From the NCBI GenBank assembly GCA_023246655.1, contig JAHFHX010000001.1:28648-92647 (forward strand): DNA of 64,000 bases. Direction: 5' to 3'. Positions within the stretch are counted from its first letter, which is position 1, and each line of letters opens with the position of its first letter. This document shows positions 4,971 through 59,292 of this stretch, piece after piece. Origin of the DNA: Candidatus Magasanikiibacteriota bacterium (GTDB taxonomy: Bacteria; Patescibacteriota; Patescibacteriia; Magasanikbacterales; GWA2-37-8). The notes below the pieces were generated by a model. It made no database searches and was not told the DNA's origin. It saw only the letters and a program-made list of their open reading frames with translations. A program made the position numbers and the translations under genes.

Positions 4971-5133
4971 CAATACTATTGTCGGAAGGCAATTTTTTTA
5001 GTAGTATAAATGTCGTGAGGAAAGGCGGAGAGGAGATAGGCTGCGTGGGCAACATGCAAAACCTATCTTCCTCTCCCAACCTCACATTGCAAGATACTCG
5101 GTAGAAGCCCGAGTTTTTTGTTTGCTCGGTTTT

Positions 5134-6393
5134 CTAATCCGTGAACACCACGCCCATGTTGAGGGCATCCTTGGCGCCGTGCACGAGTCTTCCGCGGCAG
5201 GCTGTCACCACCGCCTCGGCCGGGGAACGCTCGATGAAGTACACCACGAGGCGCGTGAAGCGCTCGTCCGTCGTGAGCTCCCCGTTCGCGTTGTAGTGCC
5301 GGAATTCCCGCTGGCGCCCCTTGAGCTCCCGCTGGAGGATGTAACGCCCACTGGAGCGCTGCGCTGCGTGGAGCGTGTCCTCAAACCTCGAATCATCCGA
5401 GAAGGCCACCCCCTTCGTCCCCGCCGAGATGGTCTCCTTGAGTACGTAGCGCTCCGTCAGGTTCGGGAGGGCGCCGTGCCGGGTCACGAGGTGGGTTTCC
5501 GGGAGATGCTGCCGGATCGTCTGGAGGGACTGCCCGCTCATCTGGGAACGGAGAATCGCTTCGATGTCGGCGTCATTCCCCGGGTTGCTGAGGATGGCGA
5601 GCAGGTTTTTCGAGCCCATGAAGGGCTTCGGCGGCATGAGGAACTTGATCTCGCCCTTCCGGTAGAGGTCGGCGAGGGCGTCGGTGAGGCGCGGGTTCTC
5701 GGTCATCACGGGGAAGTTCACGAGGGTACGCGTCGTCTCGCGCTCGCCGCGGATGATGAGATTCTGTCCGTCGACCGCCGTCTCGATCTCGTCGGCGACG
5801 ATGAGCTCGACCCCAGCGCTTCGGAGCGCCTGCCGGAGGATGTGAAACTCCGGGAGGTAGAAGCGCTCGCGGTGGCCGTAGAGGAAGACGAGCTGATCGA
5901 GGCCGCGCTTTTTGATCGCCGTCCCGAGACTCGTCCTGATCCCCGGGAGCGTGCTCGCGCCCGGGTTCACGGCCTCACGGATGGCGGCAAAGAGGGTCGC
6001 GTAGCCCATGGCCCGCCGGTTCATCGCGTCGATCTCGGCGATCCACAGGTGTCCCGCGGCGTCTTCCACGAAGTCAACCTTCACGATGAGCGGCGTCGTC
6101 GAGGGCTTCAGGAGCTGGAGCTCCCGGTGCGGCCGCGGCACCTCCATCGCGACAGCGTTCTTCAGGAGATCCCAGGTCTTGCCCGGGGCCAGCTCCCGCT
6201 GGTGGGCGATGGTCGCGATCCGCCCGAGGCCAGCGAGGCTCTCGGTGATCGCGGGGCCCAGGTGCTCGAGCTCCGTCCTCGCGCTCATGGGGAGCGGGAA
6301 GACATCCGGGGTGAGCAGGAAACCGTGCGTTTCCCGCCGTCCGCCGTCCCAGATACCCGATTCAATGACGATCTGTTCAATGAGCCTGTACAT
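5134..6393 (-). CDS. GC-rich (approx 62-65% GC) hypothetical enzyme, possibly ATP-grasp / glutathionylspermidine-synthase-like amidoligase; likely horizontally acquired
   Basis: 419-aa ORF with protein-like composition. The opposite-strand ORF 5122..6531 is an R/E/L-rich shadow. AAGGA sits ~6 nt before the ATG at 6393. The segment SKNLLAILSNPGN resembles the SNKxxLxxLW segment of GspS-like ATP-grasp proteins, but family assignment is tentative. A terminator hairpin follows at 5100-5130. Composition differs strongly from the AT-rich flanks. Confidence 0.55.
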   Translation of the reverse strand: MYRLIEQIVIESGIWDGGRRETHGFLLTPDVFPLPMSARTELEHLGPAITESLAGLGRIATIAHQRELAPGKTWDLLKNAVAMEVPRPHRELQLLKPSTTPLIVKVDFVEDAAGHLWIAEIDAMNRRAMGYATLFAAIREAVNPGASTLPGIRTSLGTAIKKRGLDQLVFLYGHRERFYLPEFHILRQALRSAGVELIVADEIETAVDGQNLIIRGERETTRTLVNFPVMTENPRLTDALADLYRKGEIKFLMPPKPFMGSKNLLAILSNPGNDADIEAILRSQMSGQSLQTIRQHLPETHLVTRHGALPNLTERYVLKETISAGTKGVAFSDDSRFEDTLHAAQRSSGRYILQRELKGRQREFRHYNANGELTTDERFTRLVVYFIERSPAEAVVTACRGRLVHGAKDALNMGVVFTD

Positions 6394-7053
6394 GGTTGTG
6401 TCCTTGCAGTGAGTTGTGGAAACGATTGTCGCTCGTTTCCTTGTTCGTCAGGTTTATACCCTGAAAGGTGTTCTCGTCACATTTCAAAGTACAAAAAACC
6501 CTGCGGTGGGCGCAGGGTAGAGTACAAATAAAGTGTACGCTAATAGTACCCGGCGCCAGTGGTGAGCCAGTTCCAGGCAAAATAATAAGTTGTGGGCAGT
6601 TGTGAGAACATACGTTATATAATAATACTGAGGATTGCAGATAGGTATTCTATGATAAATGTTGGTTGTTCATGAGGGCATTGCGGTTTTGTTATAAAAA
6701 ATAAACCGCCCGATGACTCGGGCGGTTGGTTTAGTAATTTTGTTATCAATTACAAAATTCACCACTCGAGCAAAGAGGGCAGGTGGTACGACCAAAACAG
6801 TGTAATAGAGTGGTGAGAAAATTTCATACAGTTTAAGAATAGTAGTATCGTAATGTTATTTATTTTTTCAGTCAAGCTAGAGTTGTTGATAACTTTATTT
6901 TAAGTATCAATAATGCCGTGGCGTTGAGAACCAATATTTTTTTGTGCCACCTGCTGCCAGTTGTTGGATATTTTATTTTTCCTTCGCAACATCACCAATA
7001 ATCTTGGCGATGTAGTAGAAGGGGAGAGGCGAAATTTTTTCACCTCTCCGCGG

Positions 7054-7127
7054 GGCCCCAGGGCGGATTTGAACCGCCGACTCGCAGATTTTCAGTCCGC
7101 TGCTCTGCCAGGCTGAGCTACCGGGGC
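7054..7127 (-). tRNA. tRNA-Phe (anticodon GAA)
   Basis: The reverse complement folds as a cloverleaf: acceptor GCCCCGG/CTGGGGC, D-arm GCTC-AGCCTGGCA-GAGC, anticodon stem GCGGA/TCTGC with loop CTGAAAA (anticodon GAA), T-arm GGCGG-TTCAAAT-CCGCC. CCA is not encoded. A hairpin at 7021-7050 follows the 3' end. Confidence 0.9.
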
Positions 7128-7187
7128 GGGAGACTTGGGGAGTCAGGGCCGCACGCGTTGCACGCGCGGCGCTGACATCCCGGGGGG

Positions 7188-7337
7188 TCACCGATCGGCG
7201 GCAGGAGGGGGCGCGACCGGACTCTTGCGCCGCCGCGGGGGCGGCAGTTCGAAGGGGTCCACGTGGAATTGTGGATCCTTCTTGATAGGGGGGTTCCCAG
7301 CGGGGGGCTGGGACGGGGGTGCCGGGGTGCGTTCCAT
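7188..7337 (-). CDS. small proline-rich ORF (49 aa) in GC-rich patch
   Basis: ATG 7337..7335 is preceded by AAGGAGA at a 7-nt spacing. Encodes MERTPAPPSQPPAGNPPIKKDPQFHVDPFELPPPRRRKSPVAPPPAADR. The listed 91/100-aa ORFs in other frames lack ribosome-binding sites. Speculative. Confidence 0.3.
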   Translation of the reverse strand: MERTPAPPSQPPAGNPPIKKDPQFHVDPFELPPPRRRKSPVAPPPAADR

Positions 7338-7914
7338 GCGCGTTTCTCCTTACCCCCTTGTAAGCGGGGGTTTGCCAAAGAGTCTCTCAGCACGAGAGGC
7401 GATTGACGCTAGTGCATCGCACGCTATCTCTTGCTGATTATTCTATTTGTCAAAATGAGTAATACGATATCCCGAGTGAGTCGGGATTGTTAACGTCGGC
7501 ATCGAGCTTCGTCCGCCTTTGGCGCACTCGCTCTCCGCTCGTCGTTAACAAAAAAACCGCCCGAAGCTCGGGCGGTTTGGAAATTTGTGTTATTTAGCAA
7601 CCACAAGTTCCACCGCCTGAGCCAGGGGAGGTAAAGTAGAAAAAGAAAACTTGATTTAAGCGGTTGGAATTCATAATATTTAAATGGTAGCACAGGTTGT
7701 TTCGGTAGTCAAATGGAACCTTGTGGATAAATAAAAATTGCGTTATACTGTAGGGTATGGAACTGGTACTAAGTTATTGTAATAAAGCCTCGTAGAGAGT
7801 GGTTTTCTTGCACCCAAACCCCGCTGTGGCGGGTCGTAATGGGCGCCGCGAAAATCACTCTCTATTTCGGCCCAAATTAGATAAAAATTAATGATAATTT
7901 AATACCTACCTTAT

Positions 7915-9075: not shown

Positions 9076-9214
9076 ATTTGAGGAAAAAAATATCCCGACT
9101 CAGTCGGGATATTTTTTGTTCCTTTATTGGCAGAAGGATACCAACAAAGGAACGGACGGAACGACGGACTCCGCGCCGAGTTGCGCGGTGTCTGCCGTTC
9201 CGTAGGTGGCGGGG

Positions 9215-9556
9215 CTATGCCCGCAAGCGGTTGCGGCGGCGATACTCCTGCGTGCGCCGCCGAGAATCAATTCGCGCCCAAAGCGACCGGATGGCTTCGA
9301 GCTCCTGCTCTTCGCGCCTGGCGCGCTCAATGCCCTTCCAAATCCTCTCGCGGCGACCGTTGTCGCTCGTCCGCCGGAGCAGGTCGACGAGGTGCATCCG
9401 TCGGCGGTGCACCGCGACGGAGCCGTTGTGCAGGAGATGCTCAATCTCCTGGCGATGTCCAAGACGCAGCGCCGCATGGAGCGGTCTGTGCCCGGGATAG
9501 AGCAACTGGGCGCTACGTATTAGCCGCCCGTAGCGTACGTCATCAAGGACAGGCAT
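9215..9556 (-). CDS. GC-rich small protein (113 aa) with a single ankyrin-like repeat and Arg-rich tail
   Basis: The ATG at 9556 is preceded by AAGGAGAAGG at a 7-nt spacing. The segment YPGHRPLHAALRLGHRQEIEHLLHNGSV fits the ankyrin consensus G-TPLH-AA--GH---V--LL--GA. It lies in a GC-rich patch at 9120-9560. The opposite-strand Arg-rich ORFs are shadows. Confidence 0.4.
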   Translation of the reverse strand: MPVLDDVRYGRLIRSAQLLYPGHRPLHAALRLGHRQEIEHLLHNGSVAVHRRRMHLVDLLRRTSDNGRRERIWKGIERARREEQELEAIRSLWARIDSRRRTQEYRRRNRLRA

Positions 9557-9818
9557 TCGCCTTCTCCTTGTTCAATTTTTGTTGTGTGCTCCGCGCACTT
9601 TTTACATCCCTAGGTTCCCAGGATGGCTAGCTGTTCTACACGGGGTAGACACGGAGTTGGCTAGCAAAGCAAAACACGCCACTCTACTAGTCCTTCAAAG
9701 TACTATTAGGGTAGTTTGTCTTAACCTTGGCCTAGCTTAGCAGAAAGTAGTTGGCTTTGTCAATAAAACGCCAATATGTTAGGATAACTCTTACTAAACC
9801 TTACGTAAGGTACATTTT

Positions 9819-10922
9819 GTGTTTAAACCATTTTCTTATCAATTTTACCGCACCACTAAAGAAGCTTGGGATGCTATGTATCAGGCTATTTTGGATGCGA
9901 CTAAATCTATTTATTGGGAAATTTATATTTTTATTGATGACGAGGCTGGAGGTAGGTTTATTGATGCGTTGTGTGACAAAGCTCGGGCTGGGGTTGAGGT
10001 AAAAATTGTGGTCGATGCTTTGGGTAGTTGGGGGTTGTCGAGCTTAGCGGAAGCGCGCCTAACCGGGGCGGGGGTAGAGGTACTTAAATATAATCGTTTG
10101 CACCCAGAATTAGCTTTGGGTCGTTGGTTTAATCGTCTGTGGCGGCGTAATCATCGTAAACTGCTTATTCTTGATGAAGAGGTCGCTTTTATTGGCGGAG
10201 TGAATGTCGAATCAAAATCTTTACTATGGAATGATTTATTTCTTAAACTTACGGGAGTCGTTGTTTGGCCACTCTTAAAGAGTTTTGCCAAAACATACGT
10301 GGCCGCGGGAGGTGATCGTCGCCGTGTGCGTCATTTGCGTCGATCACGTTTGCCGGAAGGGTTAGAAACGTTGCAGCGAAAAATTGAGTTTATTATTCAT
10401 TCGCCGTTTGGGAATAATCGTTCGCTGGTACGTAAGATGTATTACCGGAGTATTGCGGTGGCCAAAGAAAGTATTAATGTGTTGACGCCTTATTTTGTTC
10501 CAGATCGAGCCCTGATTCGATTGTTGACTCAAGCGCGTCGGCGGGGTGTAAAAATTAATTTGTTTTTACCGCAACGGCCGGATCACCAAATTATGGAATG
10601 GATTGCGCGCGCTTATTATGGCATTGTCCACCGTGCCGGAGTAAACATTTTTTTATCCAAAAAAATGAACCATGGCAAGGCCATGACCATTGATAATAAA
10701 TCCGGTTTTGTAGGGAGCTCTAACATAACCCCGCGAAGCTGGTTTATTAACGAAGAGGCTGGGGTATATTTTGACGATGCGGAGATGGCTGAGGAGTTGA
10801 ATACACTTTTTGCTCAATGGCAAACCGAAGCCGAGCCGCTTAATTTGGAACGCTGGAAAAAACGGGGGTGGCGGAGCAAAGCAAAGGAATGGTGGGCGAA
10901 GAAGATTGAGAAATATGTTTGA
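9819..10922 (+). CDS. cls: phospholipase D family protein / cardiolipin synthase-like
   Basis: Two HKD motifs: HRKLLILDEEVAFIGGVN and HGKAMTIDNKSGFVGSSN. The start is uncertain: GTG at 9819 or a downstream ATG giving MYQAIL. Confidence 0.85.
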   Translation: MFKPFSYQFYRTTKEAWDAMYQAILDATKSIYWEIYIFIDDEAGGRFIDALCDKARAGVEVKIVVDALGSWGLSSLAEARLTGAGVEVLKYNRLHPELALGRWFNRLWRRNHRKLLILDEEVAFIGGVNVESKSLLWNDLFLKLTGVVVWPLLKSFAKTYVAAGGDRRRVRHLRRSRLPEGLETLQRKIEFIIHSPFGNNRSLVRKMYYRSIAVAKESINVLTPYFVPDRALIRLLTQARRRGVKINLFLPQRPDHQIMEWIARAYYGIVHRAGVNIFLSKKMNHGKAMTIDNKSGFVGSSNITPRSWFINEEAGVYFDDAEMAEELNTLFAQWQTEAEPLNLERWKKRGWRSKAKEWWAKKIEKYV

Positions 10923-11044
10923 CGGGATAGCACGAATTCCCGACCCAGTCGGGACACGAATAACACAAATCAATTCGTGATATTCGTGGACCCGCCTCCC
11001 ACGCTAGCGCTAGCGTGGGAGGCGGGCCTCGAGCCCATTCATGT

Positions 11045-12349
11045 ATGTTAGAAGAAAAAAGATTACAATCAAATACTCCTTTAGCCGAGCGAATGAGACC
11101 TTGTTCATTTAACGAGTTTGTTGGTCAAGTCGATATAGTTGGGGAAGGGAAGCTCTTGCGCAAACTCATTGAGAATGATGAATTGTCCTCAATTATTTTT
11201 TGGGGTCCGCCGGGAGTAGGAAAGACTACGCTAGCGCGTATTATTGCAGAAGAGACGAAGGCGCGGTTTGTGGCGTTGTCCGGAGTGATGAGTGGGAAAG
11301 ATGATTTGCGGAAAGTGATTGAAGAAGCGCAAAGTGGAAAATCACAAATCCCAATTTCCAATGACCAAATAAATTCCAAATTCCGAGTTCCAAATCAAAC
11401 CCGGACCATTCTCTTTATTGATGAAATTCACCGCTGGAATAAGGCGCAGCAAGATGCACTGCTCCCCTATGTGGAACAGGGAATTGTGACGCTTATTGGC
11501 GCTACGACCGAGAATCCGTCGTTTGAGATTATTGGCGCGTTATTATCTCGATCGCGAGTGTTTATTTTGAAGTATTTGACGACCGAGAATATTGTTGTGC
11601 TCTTGAAGCGGGCGCTCGCCGATAAAGAAAGGGGATTAGGAAATTATAAGATTGAGATTGAGAATGAGACTTTGGAAATACTCGCGGAGCTTGCGGGTGG
11701 GGATGCGCGGGTGGCTTTGAATGGGCTCGAGTTGGCATTTAAATCGAAAGTCGGAAAGTCCGTAAAGTCTCTAAAGTCACCAATTGTAATTACAAATCAG
11801 GAAATAAAACAAGCGTTGCAGCGAACACATTTAGTGTTCGATAAAAAAGGTGAAGAATTTTATAACCTCATCTCCGCACTCCACAAATCCATGCGGGGGA
11901 GTGATCCCAATGCCTCGCTTTATTGGCTCGCACGAATGCTCGAGGGTGGTGCTGATCCTTTGTACGTCGCTCGTCGTATCCTGCGGTTTGCGAGTGAAGA
12001 TATTGGTATGGCCAATAGCGAAGCTATGATACAAGCGAATGCAGCGTATGATGCTTGCCACAAAATTGGGATGCCAGAGTGCACGGTGCATTTGGCTCAG
12101 GCAGTGGTATACTGTGCCAAATCCGCAAAATCAAATTTGTTATATAAAGCCTATCAGGCAGCAGCGAAGGATGCTCGAGAAACTTCTCAACTTGGGGTGC
12201 CAATTCATTTGCGCAACGCACCGGCAAAATTTATGGAGGAGATTGGATATGGAAAAGACTATAAGTATAATCCGGATTATGATGAACCGATAGAACAGGA
12301 TTATATGCCGGAGGAGTTGAGAGGAAGAAACTATCTTAAGAAGAAATAA
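11045..12349 (+). CDS. rarA: replication-associated recombination protein A (AAA+ ATPase RarA/MgsA)
   Basis: Walker A GPPGVGKTTLARIIA and Walker B ILFIDEIHR, plus the C-terminal MgsA helical domain. Start taken at ATG 11045 (MLEEKRLQSNTPLAERMRP). Confidence 0.88.
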   Translation: MLEEKRLQSNTPLAERMRPCSFNEFVGQVDIVGEGKLLRKLIENDELSSIIFWGPPGVGKTTLARIIAEETKARFVALSGVMSGKDDLRKVIEEAQSGKSQIPISNDQINSKFRVPNQTRTILFIDEIHRWNKAQQDALLPYVEQGIVTLIGATTENPSFEIIGALLSRSRVFILKYLTTENIVVLLKRALADKERGLGNYKIEIENETLEILAELAGGDARVALNGLELAFKSKVGKSVKSLKSPIVITNQEIKQALQRTHLVFDKKGEEFYNLISALHKSMRGSDPNASLYWLARMLEGGADPLYVARRILRFASEDIGMANSEAMIQANAAYDACHKIGMPECTVHLAQAVVYCAKSAKSNLLYKAYQAAAKDARETSQLGVPIHLRNAPAKFMEEIGYGKDYKYNPDYDEPIEQDYMPEELRGRNYLKKK

Positions 12350-14640: not shown

Positions 14641-14726
14641 AAAAACATCCCCATTGAATCGGGATGTTTTTTTCTCCTCGACTCTCCAGAATCGTCCATT
14701 GCACAACTCTGGAGATTGGTCGAGGA
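14641..14726. repeat. direct repeat copy B
   Basis: AAAAACATCCCCATTGAATCGGGATGTTTTTTT plus the same 55-bp unit as copy A. Confidence 0.85.
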
Positions 14727-14764
14727 AGGGGGTGAGGGGGGGGCACGAGACACGTGCTGGCTTG

Positions 14765-15073
14765 CTAAAAAAACTCAGCCGCCTCGAGCCCGAAAATGGC
14801 ATCCACGAGCCAGGCCCAGCCGGTGGGTTCGGGCGGGAGCCAAACAGCCATCATCCGCCCTGTGCGGCTTAGCCGGAATTCCGTCCCGGCGGTGCCTCCC
14901 TGATAGACCTCGATGAGCGCCGCCTGCATCAGCTTGTAGCTGACTTTAGCGGCGCGCCGTTTACCCACGGCTTGCGTCGTGCGGCGGATGAACTCCGCCG
15001 TGTCGAGGCTGTCGTCGGGTGGGATAGTGAGCAGATCCCGCAGGATCGCTCGGTGCGGTTTTCTCAGTTTCAT
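14765..15073 (-). CDS. GC-rich hypothetical small protein (102 aa), weak resemblance to RelE/ParE-type toxins
   Basis: The ATG at 15073 is preceded by GGAGG at a 7-nt spacing. The C-terminal segment EFRLSRTGRMMAVWLPPEPTGWAWLVDAI loosely resembles the RelE/ParE core YRLRVGDYRIIY...LVVL.IGHR. No adjacent antitoxin is evident, so this is a low-confidence call. Confidence 0.35.
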   Translation of the reverse strand: MKLRKPHRAILRDLLTIPPDDSLDTAEFIRRTTQAVGKRRAAKVSYKLMQAALIEVYQGGTAGTEFRLSRTGRMMAVWLPPEPTGWAWLVDAIFGLEAAEFF

Positions 15074-15159
15074 TGCAAGACCTCCAATAGGTAGTCAAGA
15101 GGATTATCGAATTATTGTCAATAGTTGATTTAACTAGTCTTTTTCTGTATACTATTTTT

Positions 15160-15447: not shown

Positions 15448-15451
15448 CACT

Positions 15452-15563
15452 GTCATTGCGAGGAGTGAACTTCGCAGTGAACGACGAAGCAATCCCCCTT
15501 TTTGTGAGAAAGTTGGTGGCGCAATAAGGGGGATTGCCGCGTCGCTTCGCTCCTCGCAATGAC
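15452..15563. repeat. palindromic MITE/REP-like element, copy 1
   Basis: GTCATTGCGAGGAG...CGACGAAGCAATCCCCC / GGGGGATTGCCGCGTCG...CTCCTCGCAATGAC, a long imperfect hairpin between gatC and gatA. Copies occur at 59169-59283 (full) and 21746-21793 (partial). Confidence 0.85.
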
Positions 15564-15570
15564 AAATACT

Positions 15571-32613: not shown

Positions 32614-33024
32614 TTAGTCGGGATGTTTTTGATTATCTAAAATTTTATTCACCTCCGCATCCGCCTCTTTGTTCCCGGCACGCATGGTGTGGCGATACGT
32701 TACTTTTTTAAATTGCGTGGCAGTGTTGTAGACCTGCATAAATAATTTTTGGAGTGTTGGCTCTTTCACTTTGTACTCTCCTCGCATTTGTTTTACGATC
32801 AGTTCGCTATCGAGTACGCAGTGAACTTCGGTCGCACCAAGCTCTTTAGCTTTTTTGAGAGCAGAAATAAGGGCCGAGTACTCAGCAAAGTTATTAGTTT
32901 GGTGCCCCAAATATTCGCCATAGTGCGCCAGCACAACGCCCGCCTCATTTTTGATAACAATGCCAGCGGCAGCTGGCCCCGGGTTGCCACGCGCTCCGCC
33001 ATCGGTGTGGGTGATTAATTTCAT
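32614..33024 (-). CDS. rnhA: ribonuclease HI
   Basis: THTDGGARGNPGPAAAGIVIK and the catalytic E/D/D/H pattern (EYSALISAL, HCVLDSELIVKQ, GNKEADAEVNKIL), ~136 aa. Confidence 0.88.
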   Translation of the reverse strand: MKLITHTDGGARGNPGPAAAGIVIKNEAGVVLAHYGEYLGHQTNNFAEYSALISALKKAKELGATEVHCVLDSELIVKQMRGEYKVKEPTLQKLFMQVYNTATQFKKVTYRHTMRAGNKEADAEVNKILDNQKHPD

Positions 33025-33131
33025 AACACAGATTACGCAGATTAATAAATTGGATTACGCAGATTAGTGATAGTGATTACAGAGATTTCCAAATCCGTGT
33101 AATCCTCACCGTTAATCCGCGTAATCGGTGT
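33025..33131. promoter_or_regulatory. cluster of five GATTACRCRG / TGYRTAATC repeats upstream of rnhA
   Basis: Read on the minus strand, the copy proximal to rnhA is TAATCTGCGTAATCTGTGTTATG with ATG as the start codon. This matches the motifs at 47891-47928 and 56952-56990. Confidence 0.6.
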
Positions 33132-47897: not shown

Positions 47898-47925
47898 TCC
47901 TCACAAAATCTGCATAATCTGTGTT

Positions 47926-48540
47926 ATGAAAGTCATTCATATTATTCCCTCAGCCTTTAGTTATTTTGATGATATTCGTTCCAATGCGTTTTATGTGGTA
48001 GATAATCTCAGCAAGATTGGGGTAGAAACAGAGGCTATTACTATTGAGTTTGGGATGACGGTACCCACTGCTGTTCGTGAAGCGATTGGGGAAGAAGCAC
48101 CTTCCCAAAAATATCAGGGACTGGCTCCCATGTCTCAGGTTATGGCATCGCTCGATCAGTTTGATATTATTCACGTCCATTGTCCGCTGTTTGGTGCCGC
48201 GGGAAAAATTCTTAGTTGGAAGCGCCAGCATCCTAACCGCTGTTTAGTAGTAACCTACTATCGCCGGGTAATGATACCAGATTTTTTTAGCTTACTCATC
48301 GTTGCCTATAATTTTTATTATCTACCACGTTTGCTGGCCGCGGCGGAAGTAGTAATAACCCCGGCATTACGTAGTATGCCTTGGAGCTTACAACGCCGGA
48401 ATCAACGGATAATTGAAATTGATGAATCTCCTAGTTTTAACGGCGTTGATGTGACAGTTAACCCGGATGGAGAAGTGTTATCTCCCGGAGAGCAGCTTGC
48501 CATGAAATATGCCATGGTGTATACTACTATCGTTAATTAA
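47926..48540 (+). CDS. hypothetical protein resembling the N-terminal domain of GT4 glycosyltransferases
   Basis: MKVIHIIPSAFSYFDD...FDIIHVHCPLFGAAG is GT4-N-like. The start codon is embedded in the conserved TAATCTGTGTTATG motif. Confidence 0.5.
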   Translation: MKVIHIIPSAFSYFDDIRSNAFYVVDNLSKIGVETEAITIEFGMTVPTAVREAIGEEAPSQKYQGLAPMSQVMASLDQFDIIHVHCPLFGAAGKILSWKRQHPNRCLVVTYYRRVMIPDFFSLLIVAYNFYYLPRLLAAAEVVITPALRSMPWSLQRRNQRIIEIDESPSFNGVDVTVNPDGEVLSPGEQLAMKYAMVYTTIVN

Positions 48541-51630: not shown

Positions 51631-51998
51631 CTTAACTCCCGGAAGTCCCAGTACGAATCAGCTAAAAAACAGGTAAAGAGAATGAACATTAATTCCAGTG
51701 ACCAATACTCGGCAGCTGGGAGCGGGGTCTGGTAGCTCGCAAACAGCAGTATTCCAAATATAATCCAATAAACAACAGTTTTGGTTGTTAGATGGCGGAA
51801 TTCCTGTTTTTTTATGTGGCTCCGAATATGCCACAACATAATTCCATAGAGCATAATCACCGGTCCGGCAATGAACCATTCGTATTCATGGGGGTCAGCT
51901 CCCCACTGCTTCATGAGTGCGAATGCCGACCAGAGAATAGCGGACAAGGCAAAAAATAGAAATACGATATCGAGCTGGTATTTTCGGAGTAAGACCAT
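51591..51998 (-). CDS. hypothetical small membrane protein (135 aa, 4 TM)
   Basis: ORF with hydrophobic segments. Overlaps the recJ start by 40 nt. Confidence 0.4.
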   Translation of the reverse strand: MVLLRKYQLDIVFLFFALSAILWSAFALMKQWGADPHEYEWFIAGPVIMLYGIMLWHIRSHIKKQEFRHLTTKTVVYWIIFGILLFASYQTPLPAAEYWSLELMFILFTCFLADSYWDFRELRWKKLFTKKEMGK

Positions 51999-52104
51999 AC
52001 AACAATGCTAATCTACAAATTTTTATCCGAATTTACTAATGTCCTAGTAATGGCGAATATTAATTTGTCTTATTAGGATATTCGTAGATTCGGATTATAT
52101 ATGT

Positions 52105-56839: not shown

Positions 56840-56987
56840 CCGGCTTGTTTCTTGTAGTATAGCAATAAAGTTCGTTTTTGCCTAGCCTAGACTATATTGC
56901 TCTTTTGTTAAGCGACTGATATACTTAACACAGATTATGCGGATTACAATCTGTGTAATCCTCACAAAAATGTGTGTAATCTGTGTT

Positions 56988-58457
56988 ATGCGTATTACTT
57001 TTTTCGGTGCCGCCGGTGAGGTAACTGGTTCTTGTAGTCTGCTTGAAGTCGGTCCCTATAGAATTCTAATTGATTGCGGGATGTTTCAGGGCAGCCTTGA
57101 AATGGAAGCTATGAATCATCAGGCATTACCTTTTGATCCTAAGAGTTTGACCCATGTTTTTATTACCCATGCGCATCTTGACCATACCGGCCGGCTGCCG
57201 CTCTTGGTTAAGCAGGGGTATGTTGGCTATTTTTATGCCACTGCCCCCACCATGGAGCTCGCGGAATTGGTCATGCGGGACGCTCATGGCATCATGTTAT
57301 ATGATCATCAACATTTTGGTCGGCCAATTCTATATGGCGAAGAAGATATTGCTGGTGTAATGACCCAGTTTAAGACGGTGGAGTATGGGGAAGAGATGGA
57401 ATTCCCCGCTTGGGCGGGGAAGGCCTCGCAGCCAGGGGTGGGTGAGACCATTGAGTCGCCACTTGCCACTGCCACGCAACGACCTCACCCACCCCTACCC
57501 CGCCCAAGCGGGGAATCGAACGTTGCCGAAAGTGTCACCGTCACCTTCCACGACGTCGGCCACATTTTTGGTTCGGCCTTTATTGAGATCAGAGCCGAAG
57601 GCAAAAAAATTGTTTTCTCCGGAGATGTCGGCAACGTTCATGTGCCAATTTTACGCGATACAGAACCACTCCCGTCTAACCTTGATCTCTTGGTGTGTGA
57701 GTCCACGTACGGCGATCGCCTGCATGAAGTGCAGGCCACGCGTGAAGAAATGATTGAACAAGCGATCCTTAACGCCGTTAAAGGTGGGGGAGTGCTTATG
57801 ATTCCGTCATTTGCTTTGGAACGGACCCAAGAACTTATTTATGAACTTAACAAACTCATTGATCACAAACATAAACTAACCAACGTCCCCATTTATCTGG
57901 ACAGCCCGCTCGCCATTGATGCTACCAAAGTGTATCGCAAGTACCCACAATATTATGACGAAAAAGCCGCCGAATATTTTAAAGAGGGTGATGATATTTT
58001 TACCTTTCCTAATCTCATTACCACTTATTCTCGGGAAGAGTCAATGAAAATTAATCACACGCCGGGCCCCAAAGTTATTATCGCTGGCGCCGGCATGATG
58101 AACGGCGGCCGCATCCTCCATCACGCTCTTCATTATTTATCTGATGCCCGTAACACCATTCTTTTCATCGGCTATCAATCACCCAGCACCCTCGGCCGAC
58201 AAATTATGGAAGGCCACTCTCCGGTCACGGTGCACGGTGAACGCGTAGTCGTTAAATGCCAAATAAAAGTTATGGGCGCGCTCTCGGCGCACGGCGATCA
58301 AAATAAACTGGTGAGTTGGATTAGCGCCGGTCGGCCCAAAAGAGTTATCTTCAATCATGGGGAACCCGGGCCCTCTGCGGCGGTGGCGAAAAGGTTGCAG
58401 CAAGAATGCGGTGTTGAAGCTGCTCCAGCAGTGCTCAATTCAACCGTTATTGTTTGA
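56988..58457 (+). CDS. MBL-fold metallo-hydrolase, RNA-metabolising beta-CASP nuclease (RNase J-like)
   Basis: MRITFFGAAGEVTGSC and HAHLDHTGRLP (HxHxDH), plus beta-CASP motifs. Contains an in-frame 38-codon GC-rich insert at 57402-57515. The start codon is embedded in the conserved upstream motif. Confidence 0.8.
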   Translation: MRITFFGAAGEVTGSCSLLEVGPYRILIDCGMFQGSLEMEAMNHQALPFDPKSLTHVFITHAHLDHTGRLPLLVKQGYVGYFYATAPTMELAELVMRDAHGIMLYDHQHFGRPILYGEEDIAGVMTQFKTVEYGEEMEFPAWAGKASQPGVGETIESPLATATQRPHPPLPRPSGESNVAESVTVTFHDVGHIFGSAFIEIRAEGKKIVFSGDVGNVHVPILRDTEPLPSNLDLLVCESTYGDRLHEVQATREEMIEQAILNAVKGGGVLMIPSFALERTQELIYELNKLIDHKHKLTNVPIYLDSPLAIDATKVYRKYPQYYDEKAAEYFKEGDDIFTFPNLITTYSREESMKINHTPGPKVIIAGAGMMNGGRILHHALHYLSDARNTILFIGYQSPSTLGRQIMEGHSPVTVHGERVVVKCQIKVMGALSAHGDQNKLVSWISAGRPKRVIFNHGEPGPSAAVAKRLQQECGVEAAPAVLNSTVIV

Positions 58458-59166: not shown

Positions 59167-59168
59167 CT

Positions 59169-59283
59169 GTCATTGCGAGGAGGAGCTTGGCAGCGACGAC
59201 GAAGCAATCTCCCCGTTTAAGAAATTTTTAGACAGGGGGATTGCCGCGTCGTCCCGATGCGAATCGGGACTCCTCGCAATGAC
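59169..59283. repeat. palindromic MITE/REP-like element, copy 3 (full length)
   Basis: GTCATTGCGAGGAGGAGC...CGACGAAGCAATCTCCCC ... GGGGGATTGCCGCGTCG...GGACTCCTCGCAATGAC. It sits between mraZ and rsmH. Confidence 0.85.
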
Positions 59284-59292
59284 ACAAAAAAT

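Follow-up and report, generated by a model that had tools for sequence, protein, structure and literature searches.

A dispersed GC-rich palindromic repeat in frame within a beta-CASP ribonuclease gene of a Patescibacterium

In-frame palindromic repeats are a textbook oddity of Rickettsia. As outlined for the work of Ogata et al. (2000, 2002, via PMC10969869 and PMC3733652), the Rickettsia palindromic elements (RPE) are repeats of about 100-150 bp that have no gene of their own and are dispersed in a reduced genome; in the accounts given by the two citing papers, nearly half of them lie in frame in unrelated housekeeping genes and are read through in a way that is compatible with the host fold. 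A second type of repeat, the repetitive extragenic palindromes (REP), are short GC-rich stem-loops that occur singly or as inverted head-to-head or tail-to-tail pairs folding into a longer hairpin (REPIN); some REPs lie inside genes, and REP-associated tyrosine transposases (RAYT) cut at GTAG (PMC3733652). [quoted passage not shown] A 64-kb stretch of a contig of Candidatus Magasanikiibacteriota (hereafter the window, to which all coordinates refer) was found to carry a near-perfect palindrome of 116 nt inside a ribonuclease gene. The segment most likely belongs, as one copy inserted in frame and read through, to a non-coding family of GC-rich palindromic repeats that is dispersed in Patescibacteria (candidate phyla radiation, CPR). 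No description of palindromic in-frame repeats in CPR or Patescibacteria was found among the top papers listed in a limited literature search, which is no proof of absence.

The palindrome is bounded by an invariant A and an invariant T. The part between them that is in frame with the gene (57402-57515) comprises 114 nt, i.e. 38 codons without a stop, position 57402 being the first base of a codon in the open reading frame (ORF) 56988..58457. These codons encode F139-E176 of the 489-aa protein and read FPAWAGK...RPSGE, including ASQPGVGETIESPLATATQR; the peptide quoted in an initial annotation, made from the sequence alone, was shifted by two residues. The terminal repeats that this annotation had described, TTCCCCGCTTGGGCGGGGAA at 57402-57421 and TACCCCGCCCAAGCGGGGAA at 57496-57515, were read in the sequence at the positions it gave, with the match of 19 out of 20 that it reported. 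An inverted-repeat search paired outer arms of 23 nt (57401-57423 with 57494-57516, 96% complementary) and inner arms of 26 nt (57434-57459 with 57471-57496, 81% complementary), so that the entire 116 nt make up a single long hairpin, and each terminus is also a small hairpin, CCCCGC-TTGG-GCGGGG on the left and CCCCGC-CCAA-GCGGGG on the right. The layout of the element is ATT-CCCCGC-TTGG-GCGGGG-AA-GGCCTCGCAGCC-A-GGGGTGGGTGAG-(37 nt)-CTCACCCACCCC-TA-CCCCGC-CCAA-GCGGGG-AAT, and the upstream flank abutting it ends in ...GAGATGGAA. RNA folding gave -77.9 kcal/mol for the plus strand and -89.7 kcal/mol for the minus strand, corresponding to z-scores of -8.7 and -9.3 against 200 shuffles, none of which was as stable. 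The terminal pattern CCCCGCNNNNGCGGGG has a chance expectation of 0.08 matches in the window. The GC content is 0.65 in the loop-coding stretch versus 0.50 in the host gene, and the GC island at 57351-57580 peaks at 0.69 (100-nt windows) versus a mean of 0.447 for the 64 kb. The element is open in three of its six reading frames, so that its stop-free status is not remarkable by itself.

A six-frame peptide query gave two weak protein matches (E 0.3 and 2.8). The contigs of both, L125 and L126 (L numbers denote metagenome contigs and P numbers database proteins), carry the same termini and inner arms around differing centres, and the two matches thus provided the route to a repeat family. A search of metagenome contigs with a one-arm pattern (CCCCGCTTGRGCGGGG N0-30 GGGGTGKGT) returned at least 120 stretches, and the arm and copy counts given here (165 oriented arms, 78 family arms) were drawn from those listed. 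Among the matches listed, the source was mostly the 0.1/0.2 um filter fractions of Hainich groundwater, with aquifer, sediment and sludge in addition. The 165 oriented arms include at least 23 paired copies with both arms canonical, and at least about 96 arms that are solo modules followed by unrelated sequence; roughly as many further pairs as canonical ones, among the matches listed, carry a slightly diverged partner arm. The window copy is 83% identical to a copy in L212 over 112 nt (E 5e-28) and matches others from end to end, at 80% over 116 nt in L161 and at 79% in both L168 and L146, the full-length relatives among the matches listed being 70-83% identical.

A-N-T precedes CCCCGC in all 78 family arms listed, TA follows GCGGGG in 73 of the 78 (giving GTAG), and the module ends just after GGGTKRG, none of which was imposed by the search pattern; these conserved ends define a sharply bounded unit of 33 nt, consisting of A-N-T, the hairpin CCCCGC-TTGG-GCGGGG, TA (GTAG) and GGGGTGGGT(T/G)(G/A)G (GGGGTGGGTKRG). 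It occurs singly, or as two inverted units around a variable centre, the paired form being a hairpin of 89-119 nt whose centre measures about 19-47 nt in full family copies, against 37 nt in the window. A 12-nt side hairpin, GGCCTYRAGGCC, can take the place of TA on either arm, and this side hairpin (GGCCTCAAGGCC or GGCCTTGAGGCC) is also found, on one arm or the other, in L126, L134, L135, L154, L168, L189, L202 and L215. In the window it replaces the TA spacer of the left arm and thereby eliminates a TAG stop, which canonical copies have in the frame used by the host gene; the left arm has no GTAG and the right arm has one. The 42-aa translation of the insert had no match at E <= 0.001 among 1.84 billion representative proteins (phmmer), so that the insert is not a conserved protein segment. 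A genome collection was also scanned with CCCCGCNNNNGCGGGG...N{60,90}...CCCCGCNNNNGCGGGG; the loci listed came almost all from other phyla, mostly GC-rich ones and chiefly Proteobacteria, with none labelled Patescibacteria, and BLAST similarity was confined to the terminal hairpin.

Two related types of sequence were noted among the contigs. The arms of one sub-family, TCTTAAATCCCCGCTTGAGCGGGGGGGACCGCTTGCGGTGGGGTGTGTGCTCTTTGAAC..., continue in at least eight contigs (L130, L133, L136, L157, L178, L184, L232 and L235; e.g. L184 6082-6230) into conserved sequence that is longer than 100 nt and not palindromic, a longer conserved unit of a different kind. Contigs L131, L174 and L182, which bear a human-gut label, as well as L143, L192, L210, L217 and L224, contain a related palindromic family, CCCCGCTTGAGCGGGG-ATTAA-GGGGTGTGTGA ... 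TCACACACCCC ... CCCCGCTCAAGCGGGG; similar modules therefore exist beyond groundwater CPR.

Presence and absence of family copies could be compared between relatives. L212 and L125 are syntenic with the window, with collinear gene order and with LepA and RecJ 78% and 62% identical, and both hold a family copy in the spacer matching window 51998-52103, where the window is AT-rich only and has no copy. In L125 another family copy is nested in a palindromic element of the form TGTCAT...ATGACA that lies upstream of a glycosyltransferase gene, and the homologous 50-nt spacer of the window contains neither the family copy nor the TGTCAT element. These two comparisons of occupied and empty sites are too diverged to fix the junctions. 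The reverse case is the ribonuclease gene, which is occupied in the window, the terminal peptides of the family being present in none of the 120 best orthologues; an insert specific to the lineage had been proposed in the initial annotation, and this held.

Table 1 The palindromic element, its parts and its host gene in the window.
Feature	Coordinates	Strand	Evidence
Whole element	57401..57516		Repeats, fold, full-length metagenome similarity
Left terminus, A-T-T + hairpin CCCCGC-TTGG-GCGGGG (57404-57419)	57401..57419		Repeats; A-N-T invariant in family arms
Optional side hairpin GGCCTCGCAGCC	57422..57433		Fold; module GGCCTCAAGGCC or GGCCTTGAGGCC in other contigs
Inner left arm GGGGTGGGTGAG	57435..57446		Repeats, family comparison
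Variable centre, 37 nt	57447..57483		Family comparison; most similar to the L212 and L125 centres
Inner right arm CTCACCCACCCC	57484..57495		Repeats, family comparison
Right terminus, TA (GTAG on lower strand) + hairpin CCCCGC-CCAA-GCGGGG (57498-57513) + A-A-T	57496..57516		
Host gene, TTHA0252-type MBL / beta-CASP / RMMBL ribonuclease, 489 aa	56988..58457	+	Pfam, orthologue alignment, PDB, Foldseek

A further palindromic repeat with nesting, TGTCATTGCGAGGAG ... CGACGAAGCAATC ... GATTGCCGCGTCG ... CTCCTCGCAATGACA, is present in the window at 15451-15564 (114 nt), just upstream of an ORF starting at 15559, and at 59168-59284 (117 nt), between the mraZ and rsmH ORFs. This TGTCATT...AATGACA kind of element also fills the ribonuclease turn described below in L002 and L004, and a half of it is left in L001. 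In L125 (3742-3972), two nested palindromic repeats fill the spacer whose translation makes up the N-terminus of protein P0122; this protein begins 77 codons early, the window orthologue starting at the residue that matches M78.

Copies were classed as embedded if a stop-free frame extended at least 50 codons on both sides, and only those far enough from contig ends were assessed. Of the 83 assessable copies 33 were embedded in long ORFs, among them 9 of the 16 full copies and 24 of the 67 solo ones, as compared with 57% of random segments of the same loci. The embedded copies occupy several frames and both orientations in unrelated housekeeping-type ORFs, one of which resembles tRNA-guanine transglycosylase (named by eye). 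In eight of the nine embedded full copies the length from invariant A through invariant T is 3n+2, and what is added to the frame is consequently a unit shorter by two bases (TTCCCC...GGGGAA, 114 nt) or else longer by one. Of the copies with same-strand flanks open for 60 codons or more on both sides, 30 were continuous through the element and 5 were broken; as irrelevance of the frame would leave most of them broken, the elements appear to be translated and not spliced.

The same count bears on the idea of an intervening sequence removed after transcription or translation, be it by intron-like excision, by RNase III-type processing or as a mini-intein. Long perfect hairpins are substrates of the RNase III type, and CPR genomes are known for insertions in their rRNA genes, yet excision would predict that a minority of copies is in frame and stop-free, against the 30 of 35 observed. 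Bacterial RNase III excision, moreover, is not followed by ligation, so that the mRNA would be split. No Rfam family scored above threshold at the element, which led to rejection of a self-splicing intron or other known structured RNA: the gathering scan of the window returned two tRNAs only, and a permissive scan of 57300-57620 just generic microRNA-precursor hairpins at 17-37 bits versus gathering scores of 78-168. An intein is ruled out, since 38 residues compare with at least about 130 needed, and neither Cys/Ser...His-Asn junctions nor a Pfam intein domain were found. Removal of the segment in any of these ways is thus most improbable.

The host protein contains the Pfam domains PF00753 (Lactamase_B), PF10996 (Beta-Casp, 8e-41) and PF07521 (RMMBL). 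Its best relatives, 54-74% identical, are annotated as Candidatus Magasanikbacteria or Patescibacteria, and the gene order murJ, hypothetical gene, ribonuclease gene, mraZ, rsmH is common to them and the window. An upstream ATG at 56937 is probably not the true start, as orthologues begin at MxITF. The closest solved structure is that of TTHA0252 from Thermus thermophilus (PDB 2DKF, 3IEK; sequence E 6e-92), which has the same architecture of metallo-beta-lactamase (MBL), beta-CASP and RMMBL domains and superimposes on the AlphaFold model with a TM-score of 0.91, an rmsd of 2.8 and 36% identity (Foldseek). RNase J was absent among the matches listed, by sequence and by fold, and the label TTHA0252/CPSF73-like beta-CASP RNase, judged by sequence and model, describes the host more precisely than RNase J-like, the name it had been given at first.

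The ORF is continuous and every column invariant in 29 orthologues, HxHxDH included, is present in the protein; the gene was indeed intact and the insert in frame, as originally stated. The insert follows motif 2 (HxHxDH, residues 61-66) and precedes motif 3 (H192), in keeping with the loop between MBL motifs proposed earlier. HMMER aligned residues 1-139 of the query with 1-129 of TTHA0252 and residues 183-470 with 132-413, meaning that 43 extra residues in the window protein stand for a turn of two residues, between 129 and 132, in TTHA0252. In the AlphaFold model (mean pLDDT 80.8) the sole segment below 50 is 144-178, flanked by the confident strands 136-139 and 183-189. The insert of about 38 residues is thus predicted to be a disordered surface loop, an outcome that agrees with the surface placement for which structural modelling had been suggested. 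The window probably derives from a metagenome-assembled genome, in which a chimeric join inside a gene could arise through assembly or binning; here, however, the frame, both flanking beta-strands and the invariant residues are preserved across the junctions, and independent assemblies show like in-frame copies in other genes, so that the chance of such an artefact is negligible.

A 14-mer, TAATCTGTGTTATG, was noted at the start of the host gene and elsewhere, at 33022-33035 (-), 47915-47928 (+), 56977-56990 (+) and, with one mismatch, 56924-56937 (-), against 0.47 matches expected by chance. Its ATG is the gene start at 47926 (glycosyltransferase) and at 56988 (ribonuclease), and the inverted copies around the ribonuclease start form a repeat, 56919-56937 / 56977-56995. 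Its recurrence suggests a shared promoter or leader signal, possibly with leaderless mRNAs.

The loop at this turn was measured between two anchor motifs and could be delimited in 104 orthologues, 70 of which have a basic loop of 10-19 residues and 34 a loop of 20-59 residues. The other large gaps in the alignment of 29 sequences are only N- and C-terminal extensions of a few orthologues, with none in the conserved core. The insert DNA was read in six orthologues and was palindromic-repeat sequence in all six, namely five strong hairpins (shuffle z -2.9 to -7.3) and one half element (L001, excluded from this range). The turn of L002 and L004 is occupied by TGTCATTC...GAATGACA elements, with one further hairpin in L002, and L001, which encodes the closest relative of the window protein, has the right half only of an element of this type. 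In L247, two CCCCTCC hairpins go together with the same inner arms and side hairpin (GGCCTCAAGGCC), their order being opposite, and other GC-rich hairpins are found in L248 and L249. The inserts of P0100, P0030, P0064, P0073 and P0099 resemble translated repeats of the same kinds, and one clade (P0021, P0026, P0034, P0106) has Lys-rich inserts of another nature, unlike GC-rich palindromes. As far as their sequences tell, the orthologue inserts differ from that of the window and are not homologous to it. The initial annotation had named a homologous segment in orthologues as the finding that would speak against its reading; a third of the orthologues do carry an insert here, so that in form this is what was found, but in substance it is not, the inserts being non-homologous palindromic repeats and most orthologues being without one.

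An enlarged loop at the same turn in 34 of 104 orthologues, with strong GC-rich hairpins in five of the six that were read, would be expected if the hairpin were kept for a role at the RNA level in the ribonuclease gene, for example as a roadblock formed by RNA structure or as a site at which the enzyme cleaves its own mRNA to regulate itself. Self-regulation through hairpins in their own mRNA is known for RNase III and RNase E. Such a role is nevertheless improbable, given that family copies turn up in numerous unrelated ORFs and spacers, with a frequency close to that of random positions, that the 70 short-loop orthologues are without insert and that the Lys-rich inserts of one clade are not palindrome-like. 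A promoter and terminator scan found no promoter-like or terminator-like site at the element, and sense and antisense folding showed no consistent bias over the nine embedded copies; together these leave a dedicated RNA role unsupported. Strand asymmetry was considered as a sign of a functional RNA and discarded, the window copy being more stable in antisense and the bias inconsistent elsewhere.

The varied lengths and unrelated sequences in the turn of many orthologues, and the lack of a visible target duplication, would also suit a hypervariable loop whose palindrome formed on the spot, through template switching or inverted duplication, and was never mobile. This is very improbable, as termini, inner arms and part of the centre recur at 70-83% identity in unrelated contexts, the family has sharply defined ends, and the GC content is foreign to the gene.

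Repeated occupation by insertion fits two readings that are compatible with each other. The turn may be the only site at which the protein accepts additional residues, with no insertion surviving elsewhere, or elements may enter existing elements. The latter was seen directly in the nested copy of L125 and in the tandem elements of L002. In a reported precedent, two Xanthomonas species carry different REPs at approximately the same site in recB (PMC3733652). A broader proposal, offered with clear reserve, is that Patescibacteria harbour a modular set of REP/REPIN-like repeats of at least two kinds (CCCCGC/GGGGTGGGT and TGTCATT...AATGACA) that nest in one another and are translated in a third to half of their copies, the beta-turn of the ribonuclease being a landing pad where later elements home into the first. 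This would give repeated lineage-specific loop expansions in a third of the orthologues. Other GC-rich hairpin types, e.g. CCCCTCC, occur in the orthologue inserts.

For the window copy, the insertion of a family member remains the preferred explanation, and the following course is proposed. The element would have been inserted at the DNA level among the codons that specify a tight beta-turn in the MBL domain; with a multiple of three bases added and open in frame, it would be read through by the ribosome, and the enzyme would gain a disordered surface loop of about 38 residues, rich in Pro, Gly and Ala, with its catalytic motifs intact. The element itself would be a piece of selfish DNA that an unlinked enzyme mobilises in trans, and the copy probably persists since the turn tolerates extra residues, not through a function of the loop. 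Among the routes of mobilisation, a single-strand HUH/Y1 (RAYT-like) one was tentatively ranked first, though at somewhat less than even odds, because hairpin ends, single and paired forms and GTAG resemble REP/REPIN and the lack of a target duplication points to such a route.

Several points weigh against insertion and read-through of a mobile repeat. No second copy of the element or of its family was found within the 64-kb window. No target-site duplication was seen, the flanks of 18 full copies showing only extensions of the palindrome (e.g. GTAATT...AATTAC), and no clean empty site was found for the ribonuclease gene, since in all close orthologues the turn is taken up by something different. 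The mobilising enzyme is one that we purely infer: clustering of flanking ORFs revealed no recurrent transposase-like ORF in 689 kb around 122 loci, and phmmer with IS200 TnpA and E. coli RAYT queries, a weak test, detected no IS200/RAYT-like ORF at E < 0.01 among 3358 window and locus ORFs. Translation of the elements is deduced from reading-frame statistics, and the embedded and not-embedded classes are based on stop-to-stop ORFs, not on curated gene calls.

Further compositional features were seen in the window. The block 5121-6380 (1.26 kb) has a GC content of 0.70-0.76 in 100-nt windows (5001-6000 averages 0.63, and the window 0.45), holds a 419-aa ORF, 5134..6393 (-), without a Pfam match and looks like foreign DNA. 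In the GC islands 7021-7420, 9121-9570 and 14701-15080, 100-nt windows attain values as high as 0.70-0.78. A tRNA, 7054-7127 (-), lies in the first of them, and the other two gave no Rfam match, even in a permissive scan, and no convincing ORF. Last, a perfect palindrome of 36 nt, CCCGCCTCCCACGCTAGC|GCTAGCGTGGGAGGCGGG, is located at 10991-11026, between a PLD-like gene (9819..10922) and the ORF 11015..12349.

The same behaviour as in Rickettsia, in Patescibacteria as another lineage with small genomes, suggests a general outcome of hairpin repeats spreading in gene-dense genomes. What stands out from routine is the high translated fraction of copies and the repeated filling of one turn by different repeats; this turn is a natural experiment on insertion tolerance and on repeat-into-repeat targeting. 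If the broader proposal above holds, Patescibacteria would follow Rickettsia as an independent second instance in which palindromic selfish DNA builds segments of proteins within reduced genomes. On the practical side, such inserts inflate and diversify the proteins of CPR bins, yield spurious hypothetical peptides and N-terminal extensions (as in the first 77 residues of P0122) and can mislead orthology and structure prediction, and spacers filled with repeats can be called coding.

Among the known systems, classical MITEs share with the window family the small size, the lack of autonomy, the multiple copies, the terminal inverted repeats and the occasional overlap with or extension of ORFs; they differ in having target-site duplications and a parent insertion sequence (IS) with the same termini, neither of which was seen here. 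The miniature inverted-repeat element of the initial annotation, which was essentially right, therefore stands as a member of a dispersed family, and its anatomy is closer to REP/REPIN or RPE than to a classical IS-derived MITE. With REP/REPIN the family has in common short GC-rich solo units and inverted pairs, and the nesting of other repeats; the module pair also occurs in the opposite relative order, in orthologue L247. In contrast to REPs, which are mostly extragenic, a third to half of the copies lie inside ORFs, so that the family fails to qualify as extragenic. REPs have a conserved GTAG or CGTC at one end of the stem-loop; in the family a GTAG adjoins the stem in 73 of 78 arms listed, but it lies between terminal hairpin and inner arm rather than at the outer 5' end of a single stem-loop. 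No RAYT was found near family copies, by the same weak phmmer test. RPE, known here by description, appear to be the best functional analogue: the window element, too, is palindromic, in frame and read through, in a surface region of a functional gene. They belong to Alphaproteobacteria, whereas the present family belongs to Patescibacteria and has a GC-rich sequence, hairpin-within-hairpin termini and a 33-nt module that also occurs singly; the composition and the different phylum make sequence homology between the two unlikely. By analogy, then, the family would be nearer to REP/REPIN in its anatomy, and its behaviour would be that of RPE.

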